From: an uncultured Candidatus Saccharibacteria bacterium
GTDB taxonomy: Bacteria > Patescibacteriota > Minisyncoccia > Minisyncoccales > CG1-02-41-26
Assembly (NCBI GenBank): GCA_964348225.1
Contig: CAYGBM010000025.1
Coordinates: 1 to 60,960, forward strand
DNA length: 60,960 nt
Reading direction: 5' to 3'
Of the stretch, positions 28,658 through 49,072 are shown in pieces. The notes under the pieces are model-generated. The model made no database searches. It was not told the DNA's origin and saw nothing but the letters and a program-made list of their open reading frames with translations. Numbering within the stretch: the first letter of the stretch is position 1; every line of letters starts with the position of its first letter. A program made the position numbers and the translations under genes.

Positions 28658-30355
28658 ATGATTAGGCCTCATGGAGATAAATTGGTAAATAGAGCCTTGT
28701 CTCTTTCAGGAAAAGAAGGAGTTTTAAACAGGCTGGACAGTTTCAAAAAGATATTCTTAAACGAGGAAGAAGCAAAGGATGTAAAAAACATAGCTCATGG
28801 CGTTTTTTCACCCCTAAGAGGGTTTCTAAGAAAGGAAGATTTTGAGAGAGTGCTTTCTGAGATGAGGTTGGCTGACGGTATGGTTTGGCCAATCCCTATT
28901 GTCTTGGATGTTGAAGATGAAGAGTATGAGCACATAAAGAATTCAAGCGAGATTATCCTTTTTGGTGCGAAAAAAACCCCTGTTGCTGTTTTAACTGATA
29001 TCCAGATTTATTCTTTTGATAAAGACCTTTTTGCTGGAAGTGTTTTTGGCACGAAAGACAGGAGTCATCCCGGAGTGGCTGACGTTTATAAAATGGGAAA
29101 TTATTTAGTGGGTGGGGAGATTGGACTTCTTGAAGGCTCAAGAGAACCTTTCCCAAATTATAATTTTATTCCTCAGGAAACAAGACAGATGTTTAAAGAA
29201 AGAGGATGGAACAGGATAGTTGCTTTTCAAACAAGGAATGTTCCTCATCGAGGGCACGAATTTTTACAAAAAAGAGCTCTTGAAGAAACAGATGGTTTGT
29301 TCGTGCAGCCGGTAGTAGGGGAGAAGAAATTAGCAGATTTTAAAGATGAATATATTTTAGCAACCTACGAGACTTTAATTGACAGGTATTATCCAAGAAA
29401 TAAGGTATTTTTAGGGGTTCTTCCCTTAAAGATGCGATACGCGGGGCCAAGGGAGGCGGTTTTACACGCTTTAATAAGGAAAAATTTTGGCTGCACTCAT
29501 TTTATTGTAGGCAGGGATCATGCAGGGGTTGGCAGCTATTATCCTGCTTTCGCCGCCCAGGAAATATTTGACAACTTCTCAAAAGAAGAAATCGGCATTG
29601 AAATTCTTAAATTCTCAGAAGTGGTTTATTGTCCTAGTTGCCAGAAGCACATTTTTTTGGGAGAATGCCAGCACAAGCACATAATTTCTTTTAGCGGCAC
29701 AAGATTCAGAAAAAACTTAGAAGAAAAAGAGGACCCCCCTCCTTATATTGTGCGGCCAGAAGTTTATAATCTACTTTCTCAAAGTTATAACTCCTTAGTT
29801 GACAATATTTATAAGAACCCAAAAAACAAAAAACAAAAAGGTTTCGTCGTTTGGATTACCGGTCTTTCCAAGTCAGGAAAAACCACAATAGGTGATAAGG
29901 TCTTTGAGGTTCTCAAACAAAGAGGCATTAAAACAGAACGTTTAGATGGCGACATTATCCGTCAGAACCTAAGCCGAGACCTTGGATTTTCCAAGGAAGA
30001 TAGAGACGAAAATATAAGACGGATTGGCTTTATCTCTAGTTTGTTAAGTAGAAACGATATAGGGGTGGTTGCTTCATTTATTTCACCTTACAGAGAAGAA
30101 AGAAGAGGGGTAAAAGAAAGGGTTAAAAATTTTATTGAAGTATTTTGCAACTGCCCCTTAGAAGTATGTGAGAACAGGGACGAAAAGGGGCTTTACCGCA
30201 AAGCAAGACAAGGAGAAATTCAGAACTTCACCGGAATTTCTGACCCCTATGAGTTTCCTGAAGAGCCTGAGGTTGAATTAAAAACCGATATAGAATCAGT
30301 TGAAGAAAGCGTCAAAAAGGTAATTCAATACCTGGAAAGGAATAATTTTGTATAA
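28658..30355 (+). CDS. Bifunctional sulfate adenylyltransferase / adenylylsulfate kinase (PAPS synthase)
   Basis: Sulfurylase motifs QTRNVPHRGHE and GRDHAG. The C-terminal APS kinase P-loop is ITGLSKSGKTT. Confidence 0.9.
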   Translation: MIRPHGDKLVNRALSLSGKEGVLNRLDSFKKIFLNEEEAKDVKNIAHGVFSPLRGFLRKEDFERVLSEMRLADGMVWPIPIVLDVEDEEYEHIKNSSEIILFGAKKTPVAVLTDIQIYSFDKDLFAGSVFGTKDRSHPGVADVYKMGNYLVGGEIGLLEGSREPFPNYNFIPQETRQMFKERGWNRIVAFQTRNVPHRGHEFLQKRALEETDGLFVQPVVGEKKLADFKDEYILATYETLIDRYYPRNKVFLGVLPLKMRYAGPREAVLHALIRKNFGCTHFIVGRDHAGVGSYYPAFAAQEIFDNFSKEEIGIEILKFSEVVYCPSCQKHIFLGECQHKHIISFSGTRFRKNLEEKEDPPPYIVRPEVYNLLSQSYNSLVDNIYKNPKNKKQKGFVVWITGLSKSGKTTIGDKVFEVLKQRGIKTERLDGDIIRQNLSRDLGFSKEDRDENIRRIGFISSLLSRNDIGVVASFISPYREERRGVKERVKNFIEVFCNCPLEVCENRDEKGLYRKARQGEIQNFTGISDPYEFPEEPEVELKTDIESVEESVKKVIQYLERNNFV

Positions 30356-30374
30356 GCGCTAAATATAAAAGATT

Positions 30375-31193
30375 ATGTTCAAAGGAGAACTTAGAGATGT
30401 TCTTGGTTTAGCTAAAAAGGCAGGAGAAGAGACTTTAAAGGTTTATAAAAACGAGGTTAAGGGCTTTCAGAAAGAAGATAGGTCACCGGTAACCAAAGCC
30501 GATCTTGTTTCCCAGAGAATTATTTTGGATGGTTTGAAAAAATACAGCTATGGTGTTCTTGCTGAAGAAGCCGAAGATAGTCTTTTGCGATTGCAAAAGG
30601 AAAGGGTCTGGATGATTGACCCATTGGACGGAACCAAGGATTTTTTAGCGAAAACCGGAGAATTTTCCATCATGGTTGGATTAGCCCATCGCGGAAAGCC
30701 GGTTTTGGGCGTGGTTTACCAGCCTCTCGGAGATAAAATTTACTTTGCAGTAAAAGGAGAGGGAGCTTTTGTAAAAGAAAGCGGCAAACCCTCGAAGAAA
30801 TTAACTGTTTCTAATGTTGCCAATTTCTCTGATGCTCGCTTCCTTCTTAGTAGATTTCATTTTGGTGAATCAGAAAAGGAATTTACAGAGAAGAACAAAA
30901 TAAAAAATATTCTTCAAATAGGTAGCTTGGGCTTGAAGGCAGGAATGATTGCTAAAGGAAAAGCTGAGGCAATGTTTAATTTTAGCGATAAAACAAAGCA
31001 GTGGGATACGTGTGCTGCAGAAGTGATTCTTAGAGAAGCGGGCGGGGAAATTACAGACTCAAGAGGAGAGAAATTTGTTTATAATCGCAAAGAAGTGAGA
31101 AATCTCAATGGGGTTGTAGCAACTAATGGAAAAATCCACCAGCAGATAATTAGAAGAGTAAGTTACTTGTATCGGAATTTCAATAACAATTGA
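30375..31193 (+). CDS. cysQ: 3'(2'),5'-bisphosphate nucleotidase (inositol-monophosphatase family)
   Basis: EEAED, WMIDPLDGTKDF and WDTCAAEVILREAGG. It is adjacent to the PAPS synthase gene. Confidence 0.8.
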   Translation: MFKGELRDVLGLAKKAGEETLKVYKNEVKGFQKEDRSPVTKADLVSQRIILDGLKKYSYGVLAEEAEDSLLRLQKERVWMIDPLDGTKDFLAKTGEFSIMVGLAHRGKPVLGVVYQPLGDKIYFAVKGEGAFVKESGKPSKKLTVSNVANFSDARFLLSRFHFGESEKEFTEKNKIKNILQIGSLGLKAGMIAKGKAEAMFNFSDKTKQWDTCAAEVILREAGGEITDSRGEKFVYNRKEVRNLNGVVATNGKIHQQIIRRVSYLYRNFNNN

Positions 31194-31390: not shown

Positions 31391-32887
31391 ATGGTTAAAA
31401 AATATCTTAAAAAGTATGTCTTTCCGATTATCTTCCGTCCTCAAGAGATATTTTTCAAAAACCTAGGATTAAAACAAACCATTCTTAAGAATACATCTTG
31501 GTTGGCAATTTCTGAAATTATTACCAGTGTTTTGAAGTTCTTTTTATTTGTTTATATTGCTCGCATCTTAGGGGCTACTGGTTATGGTAAGTTTGGGTTC
31601 TCGCTGGCTTTTGTTGGTTTGTTTAGTATATTGGCTGATTTGGGTGTGACTAAAATTATTAATCGTGAATTTGCTAAAGACAAAGAAAAAGAAAGGGATT
31701 TCCCTGCCATTCTTTCTTTAAAGCTTCTTTTAAGCTTATTAACAATATTTTTAATTTTTGTTTTCTCTTTTTTCGTTACTCAAGAACCAGCTATTAGAAA
31801 GATTATTTGGGTGCTTGGGATTTTTGTTTTAAGTGAATATTTTTTAAAGACATTCGCTGTGTTTTTTCGCAGCCGGCAGCGGATGGAATATCAGGCTTTT
31901 TCAGATATTTTCAAAGTGATACTGATTACCGGCCTTGGGCTTCTTGTTCTTTTTTTTGTTCCTTCCCTTAAAAACCTAACCTTAAGCTACCTTTTTGCCG
32001 GTTTGTTTTCCTTGATGCTCGTGGCTGCTATTTTCCATTTCAAGGTTTTTTCTCTTAAGCCTGTTTTTGACAAATCAATCTGGCTTAATTATTTAACAAT
32101 GTCTTGGCCCTTAGTTTTTATGGCGGTTTTGGGCAAGATTTACGTTAATATCGATTCCATTACAATGGGTTATCTGGGTCAGATTACCCAAACAGGTTGG
32201 TACAATGCCGCCCAAAGGATTTCTGTAATAGCAGTAGTGCCAGCAGGTCTTGTTTCAATGAGCTTTTTCCCTGCCCTCAGCAAACTTTTCAAAGAGTCAA
32301 AGGAGAGATTCCAAAGGGCCTGCAATTTTTTTATTGAAAGTATGATTTTCTTAGCAGCCCCGCTTTTGGTAGGGGGAATAGTGTTAGCCGTTAAAATAAT
32401 AGATTTTATTTACGACCCCAGCTTTTTCCCTGCCATCCTTGCTTTTCAGATTTTACTTGCTGGTCATGTGGTTCAATTTTTAGCCAGCCCTTTTAGCCAT
32501 ACATTGTTAATTGCCAACCATCAAAAGAAACTTTTTTTCATTGCGCTTTTCTCTACGCTCTTAAACGTGGTTTTAAATCTAATTCTTATTCCTAAATACT
32601 CTCTTTACGGCGCTGCCATTGCCACCTTTTCTGCTTTTATGTTGAATCTTTTTTTGGTTATCATTATTAGCCTAAGGTATACTAAAATCAAACCTTTTAA
32701 TTCCGGTTTGATTCCTCCTCTTTTCGCTGCTGTGTTTTCTGCCCTCTTAATGGGTTTTGTTATTTCTCAAGTCAAGATTCTCAATCTCCATGTTATTTAC
32801 AGCATCCTGATTGGTGCTTGCATTTATGTTAGTTGCTTTTTAATCTTTAAAATCTTAGGAAAGCGTGTTATGCTAAAAAAGCCTTAA
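31391..32887 (+). CDS. wzx: Wzx-like oligosaccharide flippase (MOP/PST family)
   Basis: 498 aa with about 12-14 TM segments and the typical polysaccharide-biosynthesis-protein architecture. Confidence 0.75.
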   Translation: MVKKYLKKYVFPIIFRPQEIFFKNLGLKQTILKNTSWLAISEIITSVLKFFLFVYIARILGATGYGKFGFSLAFVGLFSILADLGVTKIINREFAKDKEKERDFPAILSLKLLLSLLTIFLIFVFSFFVTQEPAIRKIIWVLGIFVLSEYFLKTFAVFFRSRQRMEYQAFSDIFKVILITGLGLLVLFFVPSLKNLTLSYLFAGLFSLMLVAAIFHFKVFSLKPVFDKSIWLNYLTMSWPLVFMAVLGKIYVNIDSITMGYLGQITQTGWYNAAQRISVIAVVPAGLVSMSFFPALSKLFKESKERFQRACNFFIESMIFLAAPLLVGGIVLAVKIIDFIYDPSFFPAILAFQILLAGHVVQFLASPFSHTLLIANHQKKLFFIALFSTLLNVVLNLILIPKYSLYGAAIATFSAFMLNLFLVIIISLRYTKIKPFNSGLIPPLFAAVFSALLMGFVISQVKILNLHVIYSILIGACIYVSCFLIFKILGKRVMLKKP

Positions 32888-32917: not shown

Positions 32918-34528
32918 GTGCTCAAGGTCTTTTCTGAAAATATAAACTTTTTTTTAGACTTGATAAGAATTATCACCAGTGAGATATTTGGCTTTTTGCG
33001 TTTTTTTGGATTTAAGAACCCCAACTTAAAAAGATTGTTTAAGCTGGAAGAAAGAGCAGAAGCAAAGAGATTATTGATTGTTAGTTTAACGAATACAAAC
33101 TTCAGCATAAATATAGAGTCTTTATTTGCTAAATATTTTAACCTAGAAGGATATAAGGTTTTTTTTCTGACAAATTTCAAATACAAGAAAGCGGTAAAGA
33201 CATTTCGGGCGATAGAGGGAAAGACTATTTATCATCATTTTATTTATCTTAAAAAAGGAATTAAATCCCTATTTAAAAGATTGCCGGTGGTTAGCGACCC
33301 TCAAGGTGTTAAAAATTTTTGCTACAAAAATATAAATATCGGAATTGGAGTTTACAGCACCTTATCCAGAAAATTAAGATTGGGAAAACTTGACTTTTCT
33401 GATAAAAAAACAAAAAGGTTAGCAAATAGATATCTACGAAGGTCAGCTGTTTATCTGGAAGCAGCAAAAGAGATACTTGGCAGAACAAAACCTGACTTAA
33501 TTTTAGCTTTGGAAAAAGGATACATGGGGCACAGTGAAATTTTTAATTTAGCTGTGGAGCAAGGCATTGACTTTATTCAATGGTGTGGCTGCCAAGAGGT
33601 AAATGCCCTAATATTTAAAAGATATAATAAGCAAAATAAGAGAGAGCCCCCATTTTCGGTTTCTTCAAAAACCTGGAATAGATTTTTGAGCCTTCCTTGG
33701 AATGAGAAATATCGAAAAGAGGTGTACGAAGCTTTTGACAGGGGATACTTAAAACAAGATTGGTTTTGGTATAAGGATCTGTCGGGAATCTCCAAGTTTA
33801 TCAGCAAAGAAGAACTCATTAAAAAATATAATCTCAATCCTGAAAAGAAGATAGCGATTTTATTCTCTCATGTACTCTGGGATGCAAATTTATTTTATGG
33901 TAAAGATTTATTTGAGCAGGGCTTTGAAGAATGGTTAATTGAGAGCATCAAAGTGATGGTAAAGAATAAGAATATTAATTGGTTGATTAAAATCCACCAG
34001 GCTAATAAAATAAAGTTTTTTTTAGAAAAGACGAAAGATGAGTATCGAGAAAATAAGGCAATAAAAGAAAATTTTGGAGAAATTCCAGAAAATATAAAAA
34101 TTATTTATCCAGAAGATGAGATAAATCCTTATTCTTTGTTCAAAATAATCGATTATGGTATTACGGTTAGAGGTACTATCGGGACCGAATTGCCTTGTTT
34201 GGGATTGCCGGTGTTGACTGCTGGCACAGGTCGTTATTCAGGCAGGGGGTTTACCATCGATTCTTCTCAGAAATCAGAATACCTGGAAAAATTGGCTCAT
34301 TTAGAAGATTTTCCAAAACTGAAAGAAGAGCAAATAAGATTAGCTATATTGCACACTTATATTCTTTTTAAATTAAGGCCTTTAAAGTTTTCAAGCTTTG
34401 AAGACAAGCGCTCGAGCAAAGGCAACGATATTGGCATAAACATTGAAAGCCCAGAACAAGGAGAAGATTTTCTGAGGTTTGTTAATTGGGCAAGTAAAAC
34501 AAAAGAAGAAGATTTTTTAATAACTTAA
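32918..34528 (+). CDS. Putative capsule-type glycosyltransferase (KpsS/KpsC-like?); candidate nonulosonic-acid transferase
   Basis: Weak resemblance to capsule polysaccharide biosynthesis proteins, plus its position next to neuC. It has a non-ATG start. The assignment is tentative. Confidence 0.3.
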   Translation: MLKVFSENINFFLDLIRIITSEIFGFLRFFGFKNPNLKRLFKLEERAEAKRLLIVSLTNTNFSINIESLFAKYFNLEGYKVFFLTNFKYKKAVKTFRAIEGKTIYHHFIYLKKGIKSLFKRLPVVSDPQGVKNFCYKNINIGIGVYSTLSRKLRLGKLDFSDKKTKRLANRYLRRSAVYLEAAKEILGRTKPDLILALEKGYMGHSEIFNLAVEQGIDFIQWCGCQEVNALIFKRYNKQNKREPPFSVSSKTWNRFLSLPWNEKYRKEVYEAFDRGYLKQDWFWYKDLSGISKFISKEELIKKYNLNPEKKIAILFSHVLWDANLFYGKDLFEQGFEEWLIESIKVMVKNKNINWLIKIHQANKIKFFLEKTKDEYRENKAIKENFGEIPENIKIIYPEDEINPYSLFKIIDYGITVRGTIGTELPCLGLPVLTAGTGRYSGRGFTIDSSQKSEYLEKLAHLEDFPKLKEEQIRLAILHTYILFKLRPLKFSSFEDKRSSKGNDIGINIESPEQGEDFLRFVNWASKTKEEDFLIT

Positions 34529-34532
34529 AAAT

Positions 34533-35675
34533 ATGAGGAAAATTTGCGTAATCTCTGGTAAAAGAGGGGGGTTTAATGCCCTAATACCGACAATGCGGCT
34601 GATTGAAAAGGACGCTAAGCTTAAGCTTCAGCTTGTTTTAACTGATATGCATTTGAGCAGGCAGTTTGGCTACACTATCCGTGAGGCTGAGAAATGGTTT
34701 AAGGTTGCAGAAACAATTCCCCTAGGACAAAAAGATGACTCTCCGCAAAGCAGAACAGAGGCCTTGGGCGAAGCCTTGAAAAAGATGGCTGGAACTTTTG
34801 CTATCTTGGAGCCAGATATTGTTTTGCTGTTAGGGGACAGAAGCGAAACAGTGGTGGCTGCTTTTGCTGCTTTGCAGTTGAGAATTCCGATAGCCCATAT
34901 CCAAGGCGGTGAGATTTCAGGCAATATAGATGGCATTCAAAGGCATGCTATTACTAAATTAGCCCATTTGCATTTTACGGAAACAAGGAAAGCAGCTGAA
35001 AGGGTAATAATGCTGGGCGAGGAGAAATGGAGAGTATTTTTTACAGGAGCGCCCTATGTTGATTTTATTAAGCAAAAGCTTTATTCTTCACCAGATGTTG
35101 TTCAGCAAAAATTTAATTTGCAACCAAAAGAGAAATTTCTGCTTTGCTTGCAGCATCCAGTAACCACTGAACCGGAAAAGTCATATCAACAAATGAAAGA
35201 AACAATCAAAGCCTTAAGAGCATTTCCTTACCGTTCTATTTTAGTTTATCCTTGCTCTGACCAGGGCTATCAGGGTATTGTTTCAGTTATTGAACAAGCA
35301 AGAGCAGAGAAGAAGTTCTCAATTTATAAAAATATTCCAGCCCCTGATTTTCTGGGCTTGGAGAACTTGGCTTCAGCCTTGGTTGGTAATTCAAGCGCTG
35401 GCATTTACGAGGCGCCTTATTTGCATCTGCCAGCTGTTAATATTGGCAAACGTCAACAGGGCAGGGAAAGAGAAAACAACGTTATTGATGTGCCTCACGA
35501 GGCGGCAGCAATCATCAAAGCGATTGAAAGGATAATCTCTTCTGCTCAATTCAAAAAGCAATTGAAGCAGTTAAAATATATTTACGGCAGAGGTGATGCT
35601 TGCTCCAAGATTGTTAAGGCTTTAAAAGAAGTAAAGCTGGACAACAAGCTTTTTGAGAAAAAATTGACTTTTTGA
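34533..35675 (+). CDS. neuC: Hydrolysing UDP-HexNAc 2-epimerase (NeuC/LegG family)
   Basis: GKRGGFNALIP, LLGDRSETVVAAFAA, IAHIQGGEISGNIDGIQRHAITKLAHLHF. Confidence 0.85.
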   Translation: MRKICVISGKRGGFNALIPTMRLIEKDAKLKLQLVLTDMHLSRQFGYTIREAEKWFKVAETIPLGQKDDSPQSRTEALGEALKKMAGTFAILEPDIVLLLGDRSETVVAAFAALQLRIPIAHIQGGEISGNIDGIQRHAITKLAHLHFTETRKAAERVIMLGEEKWRVFFTGAPYVDFIKQKLYSSPDVVQQKFNLQPKEKFLLCLQHPVTTEPEKSYQQMKETIKALRAFPYRSILVYPCSDQGYQGIVSVIEQARAEKKFSIYKNIPAPDFLGLENLASALVGNSSAGIYEAPYLHLPAVNIGKRQQGRERENNVIDVPHEAAAIIKAIERIISSAQFKKQLKQLKYIYGRGDACSKIVKALKEVKLDNKLFEKKLTF

Positions 35676-37736: not shown

Positions 37737-37783
37737 TTTATTAGACCAAAAGAGGATTCTTGTCTGTTGGCAAAAAGCAAAAT

Positions 37784-41336: not shown

Positions 41337-42464
41337 ATGAAAAAAATCCTTATTTTAGGAATTGACGGCTACCTTGGCTGGGCCTTAGCGAATTATTTAA
41401 AAGAAAGGGGCTATGAAGTTTTTGGCATGGATAATTTTTTGAGAAGAAAAATGGTGAAAGAGATCGGCAGCCATTCAGCTGTGCCTATTTTAAGCCCGGA
41501 AGAGAGGCAGAAGTATATTCCTTTTGAGGTCGGGGATATGCTTGATTATCAAAAAGTTGAGGATGTTTTGCAGAGATTTCGACCAGATGCCATTGTTCAT
41601 TTTGCAGAACAGCCAGCTGCCCCTTATTCAATGATAGACGTTCAACATGCTGTTTTTACCCAGAAAAATAATGTTTTAGGGACATTAAATCTTCTTTGGG
41701 CGATGAAAGAGATTTGTCCCGACGCCCATTTGATTAAGCTAGGAACCATGGGCGAGTACGGAACACCCAACATAGATATCTCCGAAGGTTTTTTTGAAAT
41801 AGAGTTTAGGGGAAGAAAAGACAGATTGCCTTTTCCCAAGCAGGCAGGGAGCTGGTATCATCAGACAAAGGTACACGATTCAAACAATATCTTATTTGCC
41901 TGCAGAATCTGGGGGTTGAGGTCAACCGATATTAACCAAGGTCCTGTTTATGGAAGCAAAACCGATGAAATGAAAGAAGATTGGCAGAGAACCCGTTTTG
42001 ACTTTGACCAGTCCTTTGGAACCGCCTTAAACAGATTTTGCAGCCAGGCAGTAATTGGCTTTCCTTTGACCCCTTATGGCAGGGGCGGCCAAATCAGAGG
42101 TTATATCAATATTAACGATTCCATGCAAGCAATCCGCTTGATTATTGACAATCCCCCCAAGCAAGGGGAATACAGGGTATTTAATCAATGGATAGAAAAG
42201 TTCAGCATCAACCAGTTAGCTGAGATTGTCAAACAGGCAGCAGAGAAAATCGGATTAAAAGTTACTATTCAAGCGCTTAATAATCCAAGGAAAGAGGCTG
42301 AGGAACATTATTATAACCCTGACAATCAAGGGCTTTTTCGCTTGGGCTTGAAACCGCGGGGCTTAAAAGAAGTTGTCCCCCAGACTATAAAGGACTTAAT
42401 AAAATTTAAAGATAGGATTGAGGCAAAAAAAGACTTCATTAAACCAACCATTAAGTGGGCATAA
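41337..42464 (+). CDS. sqdB: UDP-sulfoquinovose synthase
   Basis: Near full-length match to SqdB/SQD1 signatures: GIDGYLGW, HFAEQPAAPYSMID, KLGTMGEYGTPNIDI, PFPKQAGSWYHQTKVHDS, FGTALNRFC, NNPRKEAEEHYYNP. Confidence 0.85.
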   Translation: MKKILILGIDGYLGWALANYLKERGYEVFGMDNFLRRKMVKEIGSHSAVPILSPEERQKYIPFEVGDMLDYQKVEDVLQRFRPDAIVHFAEQPAAPYSMIDVQHAVFTQKNNVLGTLNLLWAMKEICPDAHLIKLGTMGEYGTPNIDISEGFFEIEFRGRKDRLPFPKQAGSWYHQTKVHDSNNILFACRIWGLRSTDINQGPVYGSKTDEMKEDWQRTRFDFDQSFGTALNRFCSQAVIGFPLTPYGRGGQIRGYININDSMQAIRLIIDNPPKQGEYRVFNQWIEKFSINQLAEIVKQAAEKIGLKVTIQALNNPRKEAEEHYYNPDNQGLFRLGLKPRGLKEVVPQTIKDLIKFKDRIEAKKDFIKPTIKWA

Positions 42465-42481: not shown

Positions 42482-43435
42482 ATGACAGCTAAATGTTATC
42501 TTTGCTTAGGTGAAAACCTAAAACTAATCAGAGATAGATTAAGGCATAATATAAAAAGGAATGTTTGGCAGTGTCTTGGCTGCGGTTTGGTTTTTTTAGA
42601 GCCAGGGCAAGAGAATTTAAAAGAATTCTACACAGAGGACTATCGCAAACTTCATAGTCCGGTTGTAGGTAAGGCCCTTTCAGCCAAGGAGATTTTTGAT
42701 ATTTACTTACCCTTTCAACAGAACCGTCTAAACGAAATTCAGCATCTTTTAAATCCGAAAAAGAAGGTTTTAGATATTGGGTGTTCAACCGGTCATTTTC
42801 TTTATTCAATCAAGAAATGTGTCGGAGAGGTTGTTGGGGTTGAGCTAAACCAAGAACATGCTGATTTTTGCAACAATAATTTGGGGATTAAAGTTTACAC
42901 TCAACCCATTGAGGAGGTGAATTTGCCAAAGGGTTACTTTGATTTAGTTTCAATTTTACAAACATTAGAACATATCGAAAACCCTGTTTCGTTTTTGAGA
43001 AAGGTTGGTGAATTTCTCAAGCCAGATGGTACTCTTTATTTGGAGGTGCCAAACGTAGACGATGCTTTAAGAACCATTTTCGGTATTTCTGCTTTTGACG
43101 ATTTCGACTTTAGACAACCGCATCTATTTTATTTTTCAAAAAATACCCTTTCTTCAATAGCTGGAAAGGCTGGCTTTGAGGGGGTAGTTAAGGGCACTGC
43201 CTATCCAAATATTATTAATCAGCTTCACTGGATTTTTCTTCAGAAACCCCAGAATTCAGCAAGCGATATGTTTGGCGATATCCGACTGCCTTTTGCTGCA
43301 GATGTTCCAGGGGAGACAAAATCAGAATTCCTCAGTCTGTTTAGAAAATTCAATAAAGAGTACCGGCAGCTTCTTAAAAATAATTTTTTAGGTCATGCTA
43401 TTCTATTTTTGGGCAAGAAGAGATTAAGAGCATAG
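42482..43435 (+). CDS. Class I SAM methyltransferase with N-terminal zinc ribbon
   Basis: CYLC...CLGC ribbon and VLDIGCSTGHFL motif I. Confidence 0.75.
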   Translation: MTAKCYLCLGENLKLIRDRLRHNIKRNVWQCLGCGLVFLEPGQENLKEFYTEDYRKLHSPVVGKALSAKEIFDIYLPFQQNRLNEIQHLLNPKKKVLDIGCSTGHFLYSIKKCVGEVVGVELNQEHADFCNNNLGIKVYTQPIEEVNLPKGYFDLVSILQTLEHIENPVSFLRKVGEFLKPDGTLYLEVPNVDDALRTIFGISAFDDFDFRQPHLFYFSKNTLSSIAGKAGFEGVVKGTAYPNIINQLHWIFLQKPQNSASDMFGDIRLPFAADVPGETKSEFLSLFRKFNKEYRQLLKNNFLGHAILFLGKKRLRA

Positions 43436-43492: not shown

Positions 43493-44221
43493 ATGAAAAA
43501 TGCAAAGTATAAAAAAAATTATAAAATTCTCTGTTTAATTCCAGCCAGAGGGGGTTCTAAGCGGCTACCCAAGAAAAACATTCTTCTCCTTGGGGGACGC
43601 CCAATGCTCGAGTATGTTTGCAGGGCAGCCAAACAGAGTAGCTTGGTTAACCGTATTGTGCTGTCAACCGATGATGACGAAATTGCTCAAGTAGGCCGAA
43701 AGAATGGCATTGAGGTGCCTTTCAAGAGACCTTCAGAGTTAGCCCAAGACACAACGCCAACAGTACCGGTTTTGAGGCATGCCCTTACTTTTCTAAAAGA
43801 GAAAGAAGGCTACTGGCCTGATTTTGTTTTGATGCTTCCCCCAACCGCCCCTTTTGTTAAAACAGAGCAAATTGATAAAGCCCTCCGAGTGTTGATTGAC
43901 AAAGGAGTGGATTCGGTAGAAACACTAATTGAAGTGCCAACTATTTTTCACCCTTACAATGAACGTTATATTGACGAGAAAGGCTTTACTCACTTTCTTA
44001 TGCCGAAAGAGAGGGCCGAGCATAGCATTGAAAGCGGCAAGCGGCCCAAAATTTATGCCTTGGGCAACCTTTTTGCTTTCAAGCCAGAAAATCTTTTTGA
44101 AACTAACACCATCCAAGGCAAAACCTCTCTATCTATAATTATAGATAGAGAGACCGCTTGGGACATAGACGATACCCTTGATTTATTTATTGCCCAATGT
44201 TTACTAGAAAGAAAGACCTAA
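43493..44221 (+). CDS. neuA: Acylneuraminate (nonulosonate) cytidylyltransferase
   Basis: IPARGGSKRLPKKN, GRPMLEY, STDDDEI, and the overall CMP-NeuAc-synthetase pattern. Confidence 0.85.
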   Translation: MKNAKYKKNYKILCLIPARGGSKRLPKKNILLLGGRPMLEYVCRAAKQSSLVNRIVLSTDDDEIAQVGRKNGIEVPFKRPSELAQDTTPTVPVLRHALTFLKEKEGYWPDFVLMLPPTAPFVKTEQIDKALRVLIDKGVDSVETLIEVPTIFHPYNERYIDEKGFTHFLMPKERAEHSIESGKRPKIYALGNLFAFKPENLFETNTIQGKTSLSIIIDRETAWDIDDTLDLFIAQCLLERKT

Positions 44222-44260: not shown

Positions 44261-45262
44261 ATGTTTTTAGAAATATATAATAAATTCTTAAGAGATAGAT
44301 TTGATTTAGTTATTGAGGAAGAGAATGAACATTACATAAAAAAAGGAAAATTAATAGAGAGGAAAAAGGGATTTGAAATCCCCATTTATAACTATATACC
44401 AAGATTTTCCATAGACGACTACTGTGAGAGCTTTGGACTGCAGTGGGATAGATTTAAGAACCTCCAACATGATAGTAAAACCGGATATTCTCACTCATAC
44501 AACAGAATAGTCCAAAATACAGAATGGATTTTAGGCAAGTTGGCGGGCAAGTCCATTTTAGAGTGTGGTTGTGGGCCGGGCAGATTTACAGAAATATTCA
44601 TTGAGAATCAGGCAGAGGTTGTTTCGGTTGATATGAGCCGGGCTGTAGATATCAACCTTGAAAACTGCGGAAAAAAAAAGAATTTACTGTTATTGCAATC
44701 TGATATTACTAAGATGCCCTTTTTTTATGGAAAATTTGACTTCGTATTCTGTTATGGTGTGTTACAACATACTCCAAATCCGGAAGAGACGTTTAAGGTA
44801 TTAGTCAAATATCTAAAGCCTGGTGGAAGAATAAGTGTGGACATTTATAGGAAGCAATTTCTTCCAACCTGCTGGACTACTCCAAAATATCTTTGGCGCC
44901 CCATAACAAAGCGAATGAAAAAAGAAACTTTATTGAAAATAATAGAATGGTACATCCCTAAATATCTTTATTTTGACACCTTCATTAAAAAGATTCCTAA
45001 AATTGGTTGTGTGATTGCTGGGTTAATACCTATACCTTGTTGGAACTATATTGACTTGGGCTATTCTAGGAAGGGGAGGATTCGCCATGCCATCTTGGAT
45101 ACATTTGATGCTTTAAGCTCTGAATACGATATTCCAAAAACAAAAAAAGAAATAGAACAATGGTTTAGTGATAGTCCAGAGCTCCAGGATATCAAGGTGT
45201 TTTATGGGAGTAATGGGATCGTTGGTAATGCCAAAAAAAAGTTAAAATCTAGAGAACATTGA
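44261..45262 (+). CDS. Class I SAM-dependent methyltransferase
   Basis: ILECGCGPGRFT motif I and LKPGGRISV. Confidence 0.7.
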   Translation: MFLEIYNKFLRDRFDLVIEEENEHYIKKGKLIERKKGFEIPIYNYIPRFSIDDYCESFGLQWDRFKNLQHDSKTGYSHSYNRIVQNTEWILGKLAGKSILECGCGPGRFTEIFIENQAEVVSVDMSRAVDINLENCGKKKNLLLLQSDITKMPFFYGKFDFVFCYGVLQHTPNPEETFKVLVKYLKPGGRISVDIYRKQFLPTCWTTPKYLWRPITKRMKKETLLKIIEWYIPKYLYFDTFIKKIPKIGCVIAGLIPIPCWNYIDLGYSRKGRIRHAILDTFDALSSEYDIPKTKKEIEQWFSDSPELQDIKVFYGSNGIVGNAKKKLKSREH

Positions 45263-45270
45263 AGAAGATT

Positions 45271-46170
45271 ATGGAAAAAGAAATTTCAAAATGCATTTTG
45301 TGCGACAGCCAGCCAGCAGACCTTAAAGAGGTGTTATCTTTCGAAGAATTAAAAGAGATTTGGAAATACACAAAAATTGAGATAGAAAAACATCTTCCCC
45401 CTTCTATTTTTCTGCTAAAAGAATGTTCGTCATGCGCTTTGCAATTTTTTGACCCTCAGATAAGCGGAGATGACGATTTTTATTCTTTATCCCCAATAAG
45501 GAATTATCAGTTCAGCTGGGACTATAAGGTGATTTCAAGATATATTTTAAAGCACAGATTGGAATCTCTTTTAGATTATGGTTGCGGAGAAGGTTTTTTC
45601 TTGAAAATACTTCCCGAAGAAATCTTTAGGGTGGGCATAGATTTTAATGTAAAACCCCAGAAAAAAGAAAACCTCCGATTAATTAAGAGCAATTTATTAG
45701 ACTTTGAGCCAGGCAGGCAATTCGAGGCGGTGATCTCGGTTCAGGTTTTAGAACATCTGACTGATCCTAAAAGGCATTTAAGAAAAATGATAGAGTCTTT
45801 AAAAGAAGGCGGCTATTTATTTCTTTCAGTTCCCAACAGAAACGGGGTTTTAAGGCTAATAGAAAACAAAGGAAAACCCCTAGATTTTCCGCCCCATCAT
45901 TTGACTCGTTGGTCGAAAAAAACAATGCAGAAAATCTCGGAAATTTATCATTTAAAGATTATTACTGTCATTGAAGAGCCTTTAAGCTACCATCATTTTA
46001 GATGGGCAATGCATACTTTCATTGGCACTCGTTATATGGACAGTGGTTTCAAAAATAAGATTTTAGGGAAAATTCTTCTTTTAAAACAGGAGGTATCACT
46101 TCCTATTTCTTATCCACGGTTTAAAGATTCAGTTAAGGGCCATAGTATTTTGGCTGTTTTTCAGAAGTAA
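45271..46170 (+). CDS. Class I SAM methyltransferase with N-terminal zinc ribbon
   Basis: CILC...CSSC ribbon and LLDYGCGEGFF. The ATG is at 45271. Confidence 0.7.
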   Translation: MEKEISKCILCDSQPADLKEVLSFEELKEIWKYTKIEIEKHLPPSIFLLKECSSCALQFFDPQISGDDDFYSLSPIRNYQFSWDYKVISRYILKHRLESLLDYGCGEGFFLKILPEEIFRVGIDFNVKPQKKENLRLIKSNLLDFEPGRQFEAVISVQVLEHLTDPKRHLRKMIESLKEGGYLFLSVPNRNGVLRLIENKGKPLDFPPHHLTRWSKKTMQKISEIYHLKIITVIEEPLSYHHFRWAMHTFIGTRYMDSGFKNKILGKILLLKQEVSLPISYPRFKDSVKGHSILAVFQK

Positions 46171-46183: not shown

Positions 46184-47401
46184 ATGGAAGAAATAAAAGT
46201 AAGCCATATAAATCCAACCGATATTAAAGGAGGGGCTTCTCTAGCAGGTTACAGGCTCCACAAAGATTTTTTAAAATACCCAGAGATTGATTCGGTTTTA
46301 TTTGTTCATAAAAAACACACTCGAGATAAAGAAGTGTTGCAGTTTTCTAATTTCTTTTTCAGACAGATTGAGAGAGTTTTGAACAAAATAGGCTACCTGA
46401 CGGGACTGCAATATCTTTTCAGCGTCAATTGGCTGTCACTCTTTTTTCGAAAAAGGTTTTATCAGACAGATGTCTTTATTATCAGAATGCTCCATGGTGG
46501 TTATTTGCCCTTTTGGCTACCCTGGCTTTTGAGCAAAATAGCCCCAGTTATTTGGCGATTTCCTGATATGTGGGCTTTTACCGGCCATTGCTCTTATTCA
46601 TACGATTGCCAGAAGTTTAAGGAAGTTTGCAGAGAATGTCCCCGTTTATCTGATTATCCAGGTTTGCTTAGAGACACAACCTCTTTTCTTTTTCGCCTGA
46701 AAAAATTCTTTTATCAAAAATCTAACCTTTATATAGTTTCTCCTTCGAAATGGCTGCTTGGCAATATAAAGCAAAGCCCTATTTTTAAAAATGCTCAAGC
46801 CTTTCGTATCCCAACAGGGGTAGATACTGCAATTTTTAAGCCAGAAAGAAAGAATAAAAGGCCAACTGTAATTGCGGTTTCTGCTGCATCGCAAAACAAA
46901 AGAAAGGGCGGTGAGCTTTTTCCAAAGATTCTTTCAAGCCTCAACAAGGTTTTGAAAGAAAAAAATCTATCCTTAGACTTCTACTGGGTTGGCGAAAAAA
47001 CCTTATCTTTTCCTTCTTTTTCCAGCATAAACCATATCTTTTTAGGTTTTTTACACGAAAGAGAGTTAGCAGAATATTATGCCAGAGCTCATCTTCATAT
47101 TCTGCCCACCTTAGCTGATAATTTGCCCAATACTTTGTTGGAAAGTTTAGCTTCAGGCACTCCAGCAGTTACCTTTGATGTTGGTGGCTGTAAGGACGTG
47201 ATTAAGCATTTAAAAACTGGATACTTGGCAAAGCCCCGAGATATTGATGATTTTATAAGGGGCATTATTTCTTTATTAGATAACCAGCAGAGATTGACTG
47301 AGATGGGTAAAGAAGGCAGGAAATTAATTGTTGAAAATTTCACTCTTCAGCACCAAACCCAGCGCTATTTAAAACTAATAGAAAACATCTTAAATCTTTA
47401 A
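46184..47401 (+). CDS. GT4 glycosyltransferase
   Basis: The C-terminal DNLPNTLLESLASGTPAVTFDVGG region. Confidence 0.8.
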   Translation: MEEIKVSHINPTDIKGGASLAGYRLHKDFLKYPEIDSVLFVHKKHTRDKEVLQFSNFFFRQIERVLNKIGYLTGLQYLFSVNWLSLFFRKRFYQTDVFIIRMLHGGYLPFWLPWLLSKIAPVIWRFPDMWAFTGHCSYSYDCQKFKEVCRECPRLSDYPGLLRDTTSFLFRLKKFFYQKSNLYIVSPSKWLLGNIKQSPIFKNAQAFRIPTGVDTAIFKPERKNKRPTVIAVSAASQNKRKGGELFPKILSSLNKVLKEKNLSLDFYWVGEKTLSFPSFSSINHIFLGFLHERELAEYYARAHLHILPTLADNLPNTLLESLASGTPAVTFDVGGCKDVIKHLKTGYLAKPRDIDDFIRGIISLLDNQQRLTEMGKEGRKLIVENFTLQHQTQRYLKLIENILNL

Positions 47402-47418
47402 TCTTATAACTTATAACT

Positions 47419-48207
47419 ATGTTCAAGGGAGGGCTTAGGAAAAAGGGAATTTATAAAACCTCGTTACCGGGCAAACCTCTTATCACGGTGGTAACCGTTG
47501 TTTTGAATAACAAAAGATACATAGAAGATGCTATTTCAAGTGTTCTCGGGCAAACATATGATAATGTTGAGTACATTGTTATTGATGGCGGGTCAACCGA
47601 CGGAACGTTGGATGTAATTAAAAAATATGGAGAAAAAATTGACTATTGGATAAGCAGTAAGGATAAAGGAATTTATGATGCTATGAATAAGGGAACAGAA
47701 TTGGCAAGAGGGGACTGGATTCATCTTCTGAATTCTGATGATTATTATTTTTCCTCTGATGTCTTGGAAAAGGCAGTTGGGCATCTTGACAATTCCGGAG
47801 ATAATTTCTATTATTTTACCTTGATACATCAGTTTCCAAGCCAGAAAAAAAAGACCTATAAATACCCCTTTAATTTTTTGGGTTATCTCCGTCTCTATTA
47901 TTCTGCTTATCTTCCGCATCCCACTTTGTTTGTTATGAAAAAGCAGTATGAGGAAATCGGGCCTTATGACTTAAACTTTAAGATTGCCGCTGACCATGAT
48001 ATGATATTGAGATTATGCAAAAAATACCGCCCCTGTTTTGTTGATATACCGCTTTCTGTAATGAGAATCAGAGGCTACAGTAGCAAAGACCTCCCTAAAA
48101 CCTTTGAAGATTTCAGAAGAGTGACGGTTAAAAATGGTTTGAACCATCTTTTGGCTGGTTTAATCCTTAAATTCAAGGTCTTCAAATATAAATTAACCAA
48201 AAACTAA
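47419..48207 (+). CDS. GT2 glycosyltransferase
   Basis: ITVVTVVLNN, VIDGGSTDGT and LNSDD. Confidence 0.8.
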   Translation: MFKGGLRKKGIYKTSLPGKPLITVVTVVLNNKRYIEDAISSVLGQTYDNVEYIVIDGGSTDGTLDVIKKYGEKIDYWISSKDKGIYDAMNKGTELARGDWIHLLNSDDYYFSSDVLEKAVGHLDNSGDNFYYFTLIHQFPSQKKKTYKYPFNFLGYLRLYYSAYLPHPTLFVMKKQYEEIGPYDLNFKIAADHDMILRLCKKYRPCFVDIPLSVMRIRGYSSKDLPKTFEDFRRVTVKNGLNHLLAGLILKFKVFKYKLTKN

Positions 48208-48208
48208 T

Positions 48209-49072
48209 ATGTATCTTTTCTTACATATACCCAAGGCAGCGGGTACAACATTCACTTCTCTTTTGAGAAGAAATTTTAAAGAAAGGTTCGTTCCTATTTA
48301 TGGTCTTAAAAAAACAGGTTTTTTTAGTGACTCGGAAGTTAAAACATTGGCTACTTTTTTTCCTCAAGCTCAATGTATAGCTACTCATAAATTTGCTTGC
48401 CCTATTCCACAGCCAGAAAATACTGACATAAGGTACAAACTCATAACATTCTTGAGGGACCCTGTTGACAGAGCTTTGTCGCATTATTTGTTTCACAGAA
48501 AGCGGGATAAGTTAGGCATTATAAAAAAAGAGCTTGCTCGTTTGCCCTTTGAAGAATATTTTGAGAAGTTGAGAGAGAAATGCCACAAAGATGCTCAAGG
48601 AGAATGGTCTTATTTATGTAATATGCAAGCTTACATTTTGGACAGGAATTATAATATAGAGGAAGCTAAAAAAAGAATCAAGAATGAGTTTTTCTTTGCG
48701 GGGGTGAGTGAGAGGTTCGATGAATGTCTTCTTCTTTTAAAAAAGAGATTCAAAAAAGATGGGATAGACCTGAAAATAAATTATTTCATGAAAAATGTAG
48801 GGGGTGGAAGAAAGAATTCCAAGGAATTTTTAGCCCCAAAAGTTTACGACAAGGTTCTCGAATCCAACCGATTAGATAAAGATCTCCATGATTTTGTTAA
48901 TCAACTTTTGGACGAGGAGATAAAAGGCTACGGTAATCAATTTTATACTGATTTAGCAAGCTTCAAAAAAGAGCAGAAACGGCTTAGTTCTTTCACTGGT
49001 TCAGCGGAATTATTAAGTAAATTTTTACGTTATCAAAATAAGCTGGTTAATAAATGGCTTGCTCGCTTTTAA
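48209..49072 (+). CDS. PAPS-dependent sulfotransferase (Sulfotransfer_2-like)
   Basis: 5'-PSB-like FLHIPKAAGTTF and 3'-PB-like FLRDPVDRALSHY. Confidence 0.7.
   Translation: MYLFLHIPKAAGTTFTSLLRRNFKERFVPIYGLKKTGFFSDSEVKTLATFFPQAQCIATHKFACPIPQPENTDIRYKLITFLRDPVDRALSHYLFHRKRDKLGIIKKELARLPFEEYFEKLREKCHKDAQGEWSYLCNMQAYILDRNYNIEEAKKRIKNEFFFAGVSERFDECLLLLKKRFKKDGIDLKINYFMKNVGGGRKNSKEFLAPKVYDKVLESNRLDKDLHDFVNQLLDEEIKGYGNQFYTDLASFKKEQKRLSSFTGSAELLSKFLRYQNKLVNKWLARF

Follow-up and report, generated by a model that had tools for sequence, protein, structure and literature searches.

A glycan locus in a reduced-genome bacterium with dedicated sulfur-activation genes and a predicted sulfonated nonulosonic acid

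Gene content of the locus

The window, which is the whole 60,960-nt stretch of DNA that was analysed, contains a single co-directional array of genes on the + strand (28658-50043), with intergenic gaps of at most 58 nt, except for 198 nt ahead of the flippase gene. The nearest homologues bear the names Candidatus Paceibacterales, Nealsonbacteria or Patescibacteria, which fits the reduced-genome host assumed in an earlier sequence-only reading of this DNA. The five sulfur genes named in that reading were all found at their coordinates on the + strand with their key motifs.

The first of them encodes a fused ATP sulfurylase/APS kinase (Sat-CysC, 28658-30355) with PUA_2, ATP-sulfurylase and APS_kinase domains, which makes APS and PAPS. 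Both enzyme parts scored above the cut-offs of their models (TIGR00339, 409 against 323; TIGR00455, 233 against 139), and homologues with 57-67% identity number in the thousands, some of them named Patescibacteria or Nealsonbacteria. It is followed by a CysQ-like 3'(2'),5'-bisphosphate nucleotidase (30375-31193; Inositol_P, 182 bits), a putative PAP remover whose top NCBIfam match was CysQ (TIGR01331, 194 bits, below the cut-off of 229). The gene at 39881-41308 encodes a fusion of a PseF-like cytidylyltransferase (N-terminal CTP_transf_3) and an Fe-S-type APS/PAPS reductase, CysH (C-terminal PAPS_reduct). Its homologues are full length at 475 aa, which supports 39881 (ATG) as its start codon. 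The CysH half passed NF002537 (187, cut-off 154) and carries the Fe-S motif CC...CxxC (DFCCELL, GCAPCS) and the catalytic ECGIH. The cytidylyltransferase half is paralogous (63% identity) to the separate enzyme at 43493-44221 and has a degenerate P-loop. Only three further protein clusters were found with this fusion, one of them named Paceibacterales.

SqdB (41337-42464), of the UDP-sulfoquinovose synthase family, matched NF041015 over its full length (555 bits, below the cut-off of 575) and Arabidopsis SQD1 (PDB 1qrr) with E = 4e-127 and about 57% identity. The catalytic motifs GTMGEYG (Thr145) and YHxxK (Tyr182/His183/Lys186) are kept, and the protein is canonical at all conserved positions. 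The substitutions specific to a dedicated NulO-linked SqdB clade were absent from the window SqdB, and nothing in its sequence indicates that it would use UDP-GlcNAc. The fifth sulfur gene encodes a PAPS-dependent sulfotransferase (48209-49072; Sulfotransfer_2, 33.6, and Sulfotransfer_1, 26.6, both above 22), putatively for O- or N-sulfation of a glycan, with the 5'-phosphosulfate loop PKAAGTT and the 3'-phosphate motif RDPvdRalS (patterns PKxxGTT and RDPxxR..S).

Between and around these genes lie a Wzx-type flippase (31391-32887; Polysacc_synt, 124 bits), a soluble protein of 536 aa whose family is uncharacterised (32918-34528), and a NeuC-type hydrolysing nucleotide-sugar 2-epimerase (34533-35675; TIGR03568, 376 against 236), which is about 37% identical to LegG (5zlr). 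A GalE-like SDR epimerase or reductase (35707-36666; Epimerase, 184 bits; GalE TIGR01179, 173, below the cut-off of 262) and a NeuB-family nonulosonic acid (NulO) synthase (36675-37736; NeuB and SAF domains) come next. They are followed by a KedN5-like enzyme with B12-binding and Radical_SAM domains (37760-39829; NF033712, 146 bits, below cut-off), which is probably a sugar-acting C-methyltransferase. Downstream of SqdB are a SAM-dependent methyltransferase (42482-43435; Methyltransf_23/11) and a CTP_transf_3 cytidylyltransferase with an intact IPARGGSKR P-loop (43493-44221; PseF TIGR03584, 148, below the cut-off of 206), a probable CMP-NulO synthetase. A pair of SAM methyltransferases (44261-45262 and 45259-46170; Methyltransf_11/23/31), a GT4 (46184-47401; Glycos_transf_1) and a GT2 glycosyltransferase (47419-48207; Glycos_transf_2) precede the sulfotransferase, and another SAM methyltransferase (49054-50043; Methyltransf_23/11/12) ends the array.

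Recurrence of the sulfate-activation genes

Parts of the sulfur gene set recur in other loci of glycan type: CysQ, Sat/CysC and a sulfotransferase occur together in L172, L171 has three sulfotransferases around Sat/CysC, and L173 pairs CysQ with Sat/CysC. The CysQ-like gene lies immediately 5' of Sat/CysC in both L172 and L173. CysH adjoins SqdB also in L085, L010, L013, L019 and L074. Since the CysH-SqdB adjacency and the grouping of Sat/CysC, CysQ and sulfotransferase both recur in other loci, the two-branch logic of the earlier reading, in which SqdB receives sulfite, a sulfotransferase draws on PAPS and CysQ clears the PAP, was upheld. The locus context also bears out its view that the sulfate-activation genes stand in a glycan rather than an assimilatory setting. 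That reading had called such surface chemistry unusual for a reduced-genome bacterium, a description that is only partly apt: Patescibacteria glycan loci commonly carry the PAPS module.

A nonulosonic acid cassette around SqdB

Both SqdB and CysH lie within a NulO cassette comprising the NeuC-like 2-epimerase, the GalE-like SDR, the NeuB-like synthase, the B12 radical-SAM enzyme and the two cytidylyltransferases. Two Paceibacterales-type relatives (L001 and L003) keep the module NeuC-dehydrogenase-B12-rSAM-CTP::CysH-SqdB-CTP-NeuB. Their counterparts of the cytidylyltransferase at 43493-44221 are 71-74% identical and lie directly 3' of SqdB, and their radical-SAM enzymes are 63-64% identical to that of the window, against 36-38% in L092 and L066. 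The methyltransferase at 42482-43435 is kept beside the cassette in relatives (56% identical in L001), and homologues of the SDR adjoin SqdB both in the cassette loci and in many loci of the canonical SqdB type.

SqdB and sulfite-supply genes are interleaved among NulO genes in L085, L023 and L091-L096. In L023 the gene order is SqdB-NeuB-NeuC-CTP, with nothing in between. The Falkowbacteria locus L085 has CysH-CysD-CysN-SqdB between the cytidylyltransferase and NeuB in a single operon that lacks an APS kinase. In L173, CysH-CTP-NeuB-like genes are present but SqdB is missing from the surrounding 10 kb, which counts against a linked pathway. The cassette contains neither an aminotransferase nor an acetyltransferase, so the pathway is not of the Leg or Pse type.

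Co-occurrence of a NeuB clade with SqdB

In a neighbour-joining tree, the window NeuB belonged to a clade (bootstrap 99/100) of 12 loci: the window, L001, L003, L085, L018 (Syntrophaceae), L023 (Deltaproteobacteria) and L091-L096. SqdB was present in 11 of these 12 loci, compared to one of the 76 NeuB sequences outside the clade, and the twelfth, SqdB-less locus is a 3.4-kb stub. The clade loci come from several phyla and range in GC content from 0.35 to 0.70. Metagenomes were also searched with the window NeuB alone, and the retrieved neighbourhoods were then checked for SqdB, which was found in 5/6 clade loci and 0/73 others (p = 2.7e-7, Fisher's exact test; p = 5.8e-7 for loci of at least 8 kb only), p-values that overstate the association because the clade loci are phylogenetically non-independent. 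All five informative metagenome loci with NeuB at 42% identity or more had SqdB together with NeuC, SDR and cytidylyltransferase in a co-directional cassette. The window NeuC groups with the NeuCs of other SqdB-linked cassettes, and the NeuC tree mirrors the NeuB pattern. The NeuB/NeuC clade co-occurs strictly with SqdB across lineages. The SqdBs tied to it belong to at least three distinct SqdB lineages, which indicates that NeuB and NeuC remained unchanged as their SqdB partner was repeatedly brought in anew or exchanged.

The window NeuB reached the equivalog cut-off of neither NeuB nor PseI. Every catalytic and metal-binding residue is kept in the clade, and its pocket carries the specific changes N29T/S, F112H, F288W and I82R; position 29 is Asn in all 76 NeuBs outside. 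In NmNeuB, F112 and F288 line the active site (PMC6795526).

Candidate transferases

No SqdX/SqdD/Agl16-type transferase was identifiable in the window, and none of its glycosyltransferases passed a specific family model, the GT4 and the GT2 having generic NCBIfam matches only. The GT4 is 34% identical to a GT4 upstream of SqdB in L088. The soluble protein at 32918-34528 had no Pfam or NCBIfam match of its own; its family comprises 3277 representative homologues, and 14 of 30 homologues matched PF05159 Capsule_synth (best E = 2e-7). A profile of the protein reached only E = 0.64 against KpsC (6mgb). The gene sits upstream of NeuC, in a slot held by a TagF-like protein in L085, L003 and L095, and one TagF-like protein is the sole transferase of the compact cassettes L023 and L085. 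From its position and distant matches, we regard the protein as a weak candidate for a CMP-ulosonic-acid transferase, remotely KpsC/KpsS-like.

Proposed pathway and alternatives

We favour, with a little more confidence than doubt, a route from APS via sulfite to a UDP-6-sulfo sugar and then, through NeuC and NeuB, to a CMP-9-deoxy-9-sulfo-nonulosonic acid, with a separate PAPS-dependent O-sulfation. The CysH domain would reduce APS, possibly PAPS, to sulfite, and SqdB would attach it at C6 of a UDP-hexose. The resulting UDP-6-deoxy-6-sulfo sugar would be mainly an intermediate, akin to the 4,6-dehydratase product of the legionaminic and pseudaminic pathways, rather than an end-point donor. 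The SDR may re-configure it, and the NeuC-like enzyme would free the 6-sulfo-aldohexose from the nucleotide. The specialised NeuB would condense this with PEP to a 9-deoxy-9-sulfo-nonulosonic acid. The cytidylyltransferase at 43493-44221 would activate it with CMP, the radical-SAM enzyme and the SAM methyltransferases may add further methyl groups, and the candidate transferase at 32918-34528 would load it onto the Wzx-flipped glycan. The step order, the stereochemistry, the choice of UDP-Glc or UDP-GlcNAc as substrate and the product chemistry are all predictions from gene neighbourhood and sequence. In the other branch, the APS-kinase domain would supply PAPS, the sulfotransferase would put a sulfate ester on the glycan, and CysQ would remove the PAP. 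As part of this reading as a whole, and with the same modest confidence, the locus would have a private sulfur-activation branch that forks at APS into sulfonate and sulfate ester.

The proposed route resembles those to legionaminic, pseudaminic and sialic acids (LegB-C-H-G-I-F, PseB-C-H-G-I-F and NeuC-NeuB-NeuA) in the alteration of a nucleotide sugar at C6 by an SDR of 4,6-dehydratase type, NeuC/LegG release, NeuB-family condensation with PEP and CMP activation by a CTP_transf_3 enzyme. The window differs in having SqdB in the dehydratase's place, so C6 (C9 of the NulO) would bear a sulfonate instead of a methyl group. It also differs in lacking an aminotransferase and an N-acetyltransferase in the cassette, in its separate NeuB clade with a changed pocket and scores below both cut-offs, and in having CysH (in L085 also CysDN) built into the operon. 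Animal NANS and Bacteroides Kdn-9-P synthase, which make Neu5Ac-9-phosphate and Kdn-9-phosphate, are NeuB-fold enzymes that join PEP to a hexose with an anion at C6. Their phosphate ester is later removed, whereas the C-S sulfonate of the window would stay in the product. Counting against the sulfonated NulO, the NeuC and LegG substrates known to us are all 2-acetamido sugars; UDP-sulfoquinovose bears a 2-OH, and we know of no precedent for a glycal-type NeuC mechanism on it.

The earlier reading had the sulfonate end as a sulfoquinovose unit. In that form the claim is not supported: the earlier reading overlooked that SqdB and CysH belong to a cassette with NeuC, NeuB and cytidylyltransferase genes, and that the CysH domain shares one polypeptide with a cytidylyltransferase. 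As the main alternative, UDP-sulfoquinovose may still be a direct glycosyl donor for a residue in the glycan, with an ordinary Neu5Ac-like NulO made separately by a co-inherited cluster, which we consider possible but doubtful. NeuC, NeuB and a cytidylyltransferase alone constitute a full route from UDP-GlcNAc to CMP-Neu5Ac, so the gene content is also compatible with two independent sugars. The window NeuC exceeds the NeuC equivalog cut-off, the window SqdB looks canonical, and a generic GT4 and GT2, which might take UDP-sulfoquinovose as a direct donor, lie downstream, the GT4 with its homologue beside SqdB in L088. The Agl3/Agl16 system of the Sulfolobus N-glycan is a precedent for glycan sulfoquinovose (PMC4388408). 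Like Agl3 and the SQD1/SqdB of the SqdX (SQDG) system, the window SqdB is of the UDP-sulfoquinovose synthase type, a clear homologue with intact catalytic residues and sulfite as the expected sulfur donor, but its linkage to NulO genes and a dedicated CysH is not known from either system. Two independent sugars would leave unexplained the near-constant SqdB of the NeuB/NeuC clade across that GC range and through swaps of SqdB lineage, the interleaving of SqdB and sulfite-supply genes with NulO genes, the sub-threshold NeuB with its altered pocket, and the lone TagF-like transferase of L023 and L085.

A supply of UDP-sulfoquinovose for the membrane sulfolipid SQDG, with the position in a glycan locus incidental, is improbable. 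Most of the 79 SqdB loci from reference genomes lack nearby NulO genes, and the window GT4 is of SqdX's family; against this, its match is generic, and SqdB lies inside a Wzx/Wzy-type glycan operon and a conserved NulO cassette. Patescibacteria, to our knowledge, generally lack lipid biosynthesis, which also counts against it.

That Sat, CysC, CysH and CysQ are an ordinary assimilatory set for cysteine, in a glycan locus by chance, is very improbable. The closest stand-alone CysH homologues do stand in assimilatory or unrelated contexts (NIR_SIR and PALP nearby in L009), but scanned window ORFs of at least 100 aa contained neither domain, in agreement with the earlier statement that the window encodes neither a sulfite reductase nor a cysteine synthase. 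In addition, CysH forms one protein with a cytidylyltransferase and is the immediate neighbour of SqdB, and the sulfate-activation genes recur within relatives' glycan loci. The enzymes and chemistry are those of assimilatory sulfate reduction (Sat/CysDN, CysC, CysH, CysQ) up to sulfite and PAPS, and CysH has both its Fe-S motif and the cysteine of its C-terminal ECGxH, but in this glycan-synthesis context the sulfur would end up in a sulfonate and a sulfate ester, not in sulfide.

In the literature searched, no paper connected SqdB-type sulfonation with NulO synthesis. The sulfonated nonulosonic acid is indicated as the product by a NeuB clade that is nearly always found with SqdB in unrelated organisms. 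Set beside other genomes, the locus suggests that the sulfite is destined, beyond a plain sulfoquinovose unit, for a never-described, sialic-acid-like nine-carbon sugar.

Organization of the glycan locus

The window was almost wholly occupied by one large glycan locus, in which the genes from 28658 to 50043 formed a tight co-directional array on the + strand. The earlier sequence-only reading had described a sulfur-activation branch inside this locus, and all of its gene calls were borne out: a fused ATP sulfurylase/APS kinase (28658–30355), a putative CysQ (30375–31193), a protein with a C-terminal CysH domain (39881–41308), a predicted SqdB (41337–42464) and a sulfotransferase-like protein (48209–49072). 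However, that reading overlooked a set of nonulosonic acid (NulO) genes around CysH and SqdB. All on the + strand, this set comprised a NeuC-type hydrolysing 2-epimerase (34533–35675), a GalE-like SDR (35707–36666) included by position, a NeuB-family synthase (36675–37736), a B12 radical-SAM enzyme (37760–39829) and a second cytidylyltransferase (43493–44221). The nearest homologues were named Candidatus Paceibacterales, Nealsonbacteria or Patescibacteria, consistent with the proposed origin from a reduced-genome bacterium.

A separate module lay upstream (18002–28589). It encoded an FAD oxidoreductase that weakly matched UDP-galactopyranose mutase, a GtrA protein, three membrane glycosyltransferases of the PMT/PMT_2 type (19907–21346 on the − strand, 24938–26578 and 27273–28589) and two AglJ-like polyprenyl-phosphate GT2s, of which one had a fused methyltransferase. 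This module resembles a system for protein or polymer glycosylation that depends on a lipid carrier. At the other end of the locus, an 827-aa Wzy_C (O-antigen-ligase-like) protein was encoded at 57916–60399, and a similar 837-aa Wzy_C + TPR protein was found in related Patescibacteria (L173, 5908–8421). The locus also contained an AsnB-type glutamine amidotransferase (52466–54445), which could amidate a sugar carboxylate; another was found beside the sulfotransferases of the comparison locus L171.

SqdB is linked to one clade of NeuB

Loci were retrieved in two independent ways, by SqdB and by NeuB, and were viewed with 10-kb flanks. The SqdB query yielded 79 reference-genome loci, most of them without NulO genes. 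Three loci had NulO genes. A Deltaproteobacteria locus (L023) had the order SqdB-NeuB-NeuC-CTP (cytidylyltransferase) with no intervening gene, a Syntrophaceae locus (L018) had two SqdB copies flanking the NulO genes, and a Falkowbacteria locus (L085) had the order TagF-like - NeuC - MT - CTP - CysH - CysD - CysN - SqdB - NeuB. The query with the window NeuB yielded 80 metagenome loci. Where NeuB identity was at least 42%, an SqdB-family gene lay within a NeuC/SDR/SqdB/NeuB/CTP cassette in 5/5 informative loci, compared with 0/73 of the loci with more distant NeuBs (Fisher's exact test, p = 2.7e-7, or p = 5.8e-7 at loci of at least 8 kb, the loci not being independent samples).

In a tree of 88 NeuB sequences, the NeuBs of all these cassettes, those from the SqdB-retrieved loci included, fell into one clade (bootstrap 99/100). 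SqdB was present in 11 of the 12 loci of this clade, and the remaining one was a 3.4-kb stub in which NeuB began at nucleotide 135. Outside the clade, SqdB was near only one of 76 NeuB sequences. The clade loci ranged from 0.35 to 0.70 in GC content, and the NeuC tree showed the same pattern as the NeuB tree. The association was thus asymmetric: SqdB usually occurred without a clade NeuB, but a clade NeuB practically never occurred without SqdB, as expected if SqdB provides the precursor for a specialised NeuB.

A D-2-hydroxyacid dehydrogenase gene was found beside the SqdB-linked cassette in two Paceibacterales-type relatives (L001, 6939–7925; L003, 2944–3921), in the Syntrophaceae locus (L018, 2304–3260) and in L097 (from about 279). 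No homologue was detectable in the window, where the SDR and NeuB occupied the corresponding place just after NeuC.

NeuC and NeuB

The window NeuC scored above the cut-off of TIGR03568 (375.9 > 235.9) and matched LegG (5zlr) at E = 5e-56, suggesting that it is a member of the hydrolysing UDP-GlcNAc 2-epimerase family (NeuC/LegG). NeuB had NeuB and SAF domains, and E25, K53, Q55, K129, E134, H215, E234, H236 and R314 (numbering of the reference NmNeuB throughout) were present. It scored below both TIGR03569 (250 vs 399.65) and TIGR03586 (208 vs 340.25), and was therefore filed neither as NeuB proper nor as PseI. The clade NeuBs of L085 and L023 were likewise under both cut-offs.

We compared the residues of the 12 clade NeuBs with those of the 76 other NeuBs. 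Every catalytic and metal-binding residue was kept in the clade (E25, K53, Q55, K129, S132, E134, Y186, S213, H215, E234, H236, D247 and R314), and five other positions set the clade apart. At N29, the clade had T or S and the others had Asn (76/76). F112 was replaced by His in 12/12 clade members and was mostly F, Y or W elsewhere, and at F288 all 12 had Trp, with the others variable (L, I, F and N commonest). Arg occupied the I82 position in 11/11 clade sequences aligned at this column (one gap), where the others were hydrophobic, and His occupied the otherwise variable Y220 position in 12/12. In NmNeuB, F112 and F288 have been listed as residues that line the active site (PMC6795526). If the pathway proposed below is right, clade members should not carry the annotation 'N-acetylneuraminate synthase'.

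SqdB

SqdB scored 555.2 bits with NF041015 (cut-off, 575), covering model positions 1–383 of 384, and aligned end to end with Arabidopsis SQD1 (1qrr; E = 4e-127, ~57% identity). Its GxxGxxG NAD site was GIDGYLG, the motifs GTMGEYG and SWYHQTK were present, and Thr145, Tyr182, His183 and Lys186 (SQD1 numbering) were kept. The roles of the SQD1 catalytic residues have been described, and the SqdB mechanism is of the 4,6-dehydratase type, with a 5,6-ene trapped by sulfite (PMC4388408). The window SqdB is a predicted member of the UDP-sulfoquinovose synthase family; UDP-Glc and UDP-GlcNAc as its substrates were not distinguishable from sequence. Pro at the SQD1 Arg101 position was considered as a notable trait and proved uninformative, as Pro was found in every prokaryotic sequence of the set.

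The NulO-associated SqdBs belonged to at least three SqdB lineages: some formed a dedicated clade, others fell in a Paceibacterales clade, and the rest were scattered through the main bacterial clade. No specificity residues were common to all of them. The substitutions R36K, S47P, R229S and D231H were confined to the dedicated clade, and the window SqdB was canonical, with none of these.

A GalE-like SDR, 28–34% identical to that of the window (35707–36666), lay immediately 3' of SqdB in many canonical loci without NulO genes (L035, L039, L033, L057, L052 and others). This suggests that SqdB and the SDR form a general two-gene unit, and since the SDR trails SqdB in so many NulO-free loci, it probably goes with SqdB and not with the NulO genes. 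SqdB-like genes also occurred in 14 IMG/VR contigs, none of which (0/14) had NeuB. One of them, a 45-kb phage-like contig with HNH and an SU10-type capsid protein (L010/L174, UViG_3300033149_003380), encoded a 215-aa CysH directly upstream of SqdB (the pair at 9393–11146), surrounded by genes for glycosyltransferases, DegT and methyltransferases. The SqdB of this contig was 67% identical to the window SqdB and was the nearest outside the close-relative, Paceibacterales-type group.

A CysH fusion as a probable sulfite source

The protein encoded at 39881–41308 had a PseF-like cytidylyltransferase domain in its N-terminal half and CysH in its C-terminal half. The CysH domain, predicted to be a thioredoxin-dependent APS/PAPS reductase, matched PF01507 (149 bits) and NF002537 (187 > 154) and had ECGIH, the catalytic ECG[LI]H motif, at its C-terminus; with the APS reductase model TIGR02055 it scored 142 against a cut-off of 235. 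It contained the CC...CxxC [4Fe-4S] motif, as DFCCELL and GCAPCS, which marks APS-preferring reductases, and the Falkowbacteria operon (L085) combined CysDN and CysH without an APS kinase. The Fe-S motif and this operon favour APS over PAPS as the predicted substrate. The CysH domain was also considered as part of a clade dedicated to sulfonate synthesis; this was rejected, as its nearest stand-alone homologues (P0004 and P0008) were in unrelated or assimilatory contexts.

A search of 5.8 billion sequences gave only three further protein clusters with the cytidylyltransferase-CysH fusion. The contigs of two of these (L001 and L003) carried NeuC - dehydrogenase - B12-rSAM - CTP::CysH - SqdB - CTP - NeuB as one module. 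The fused (39881–40600) and free (43493–44221) cytidylyltransferases of the window were 63% identical paralogues, neither of which reached the PseF equivalog cut-off. The free copy, a CTP_transf_3 protein, had an intact IPARGGSK(R/G) P-loop, IPARGGSKRLPKKN, and the fused copy had a degenerate one, IPAKGESGEIEKKN (IPAKGESGE in the window). The fused copies of the homologues P0001 and P0002 had GNSEK, and that of P0003 was canonical. By sequence comparison, the fused domain is a recent paralogue of the free cytidylyltransferase, and it may be non-catalytic by now.

Other arrangements of CysH were also seen. Four homologues of 607–675 aa (P0029, P0031, P0035 and P0047) had CysH fused to PALP (PF00291), which may be another sulfite hand-over, e.g., to a cysteate- or cysteine-synthase-type enzyme. 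In a locus of groundwater Patescibacteria (L173, 15232–17636), genes for an Fe-S-type CysH, a cytidylyltransferase and a divergent NeuB-like protein lay in this order downstream of CysQ-Sat/CysC, with no SqdB within 10 kb.

A predicted pathway to a sulfonated nonulosonic acid

We consider it somewhat probable that the conserved SqdB-NeuC-NeuB-cytidylyltransferase cassette makes an undescribed class of sugar, a C-sulfonated nonulosonic acid of the 9-deoxy-9-sulfo-Kdn or -Neu5Ac type. The cassette is spread over Patescibacteria, contigs labelled Syntrophaceae or Deltaproteobacteria and high-GC environmental contigs, and in genome-reduced Patescibacteria it is accompanied by genes that would supply sulfite from sulfate (Sat or CysDN with CysH). 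In the proposed pathway, the fused CysH would deliver sulfite to SqdB as the entry step, NeuC would release a free 6-sulfo-aldohexose, NeuB would condense this with PEP, and the cytidylyltransferase would activate the product as its CMP derivative. Known 6-deoxy-NulO pathways have LegB or PseB at the entry step, whereas the cassette has SqdB at that place. Since no aminotransferase or acetyltransferase was found in the cassette, the predicted product is a 9-deoxy-9-sulfo-nonulosonic acid with OH or NHAc at C5.

A glycan containing sulfoquinovose and a separate, ordinary NulO is possible though doubtful. NeuC, NeuB and a cytidylyltransferase alone suffice for CMP-Neu5Ac, GT4 and GT2 glycosyltransferases that might use UDP-SQ were present, and the window SqdB bore no sign of UDP-GlcNAc use. 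The NeuC/LegG substrates described so far have a 2-acetamido group. The locus glycosyltransferases had only generic GT4 and GT2 matches in NCBIfam, with no SqdX- or Agl16-level match among them (47 and 31 bits vs a cut-off of 575 for the Agl16 model), and a sulfolipid (SQDG) reading is unlikely. Plain assimilation is also unlikely; as the sequence-only reading had stated, the window lacked sulfite reductase and cysteine synthase, domains of neither being found in any scanned window ORF.

For the transfer of a CMP-activated sulfonated NulO, a weak candidate CMP-ulosonate transferase was encoded at 32918–34528. This soluble protein belonged to a large uncharacterised family, of which 14/30 homologues matched the KpsC/KpsS Capsule_synth family (CMP-Kdo transferases). 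Its AlphaFold2 single-sequence model was unusable (mean pLDDT 35). Ten of the 12 clade loci instead encoded a TagF-like protein, another putative transferase, which in several of them lay just upstream of NeuC; it was absent from the window by tblastn and a custom HMM.

A predicted sulfate-ester branch

The APS kinase, the sulfotransferase and CysQ would form a second, sulfate-ester branch. The protein encoded at 28658–30355 was a PUA_2/ATP-sulfurylase/APS-kinase fusion (TIGR00339, 409 > 323; TIGR00455, 233 > 139) that scored 525 against the cut-off of 669 of the bifunctional model NF004040. The Inositol_P family protein at 30375–31193 had CysQ (TIGR01331) as its best NCBIfam match without reaching the cut-off (194 vs 229), and we infer a CysQ-like PAP phosphatase from the Inositol_P fold and the conserved adjacency to Sat/CysC. 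The protein at 48209–49072 matched PF03567 (33.6 > 22) and PF00685 (26.6 > 22) and contained PKAAGTT and RDPVDRALS, which we take to be the 5'-PSB and 3'-PB PAPS-binding motifs of a sulfotransferase.

Similar genes were found in the glycan-type loci of relatives: CysQ-Sat/CysC-sulfotransferase in L172, three sulfotransferases flanking Sat/CysC in L171, and CysQ-Sat/CysC in L173. The predicted sulfoquinovose and sulfate esters had been read as an unusual surface chemistry; for the PAPS/sulfate-ester part this does not hold, as that branch is common in such loci. Two Sat/CysC homologues, P0243 (945 aa) and P0297 (809 aa), were fused to GT4 glycosyltransferase or UDP-glucose dehydrogenase domains, a further connection in relatives between making PAPS and making glycans.

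Implications

In the full texts searched, we found no paper joining sulfoquinovose, SqdB or sulfonation to the pathways of nonulosonic acid, sialic acid synthase, NeuB or 2-epimerase, and nothing relevant on sulfation in CPR. New here would be a form of NulO biosynthesis that SqdB enters and that includes its own supply of sulfite, whose predicted product belongs to a new sugar class. The SqdB-linked NeuB clade is now delimited as a distinct group. If the proposed pathway is true, it would add to microbial surfaces a new sialic-acid-like sugar whose C-S sulfonate gives a permanent charge without phosphate, and would give UDP-sulfoquinovose-type intermediates a second fate beside their use in sulfolipid and in the N-glycan of Sulfolobus. 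The pathway would also explain the retention of sulfate activation and APS reduction by episymbiotic Patescibacteria with reduced genomes when no sulfite reductase or cysteine synthase lies nearby. Speculatively, the likely role of such a sugar would be in surface chemistry for host attachment or phage evasion.
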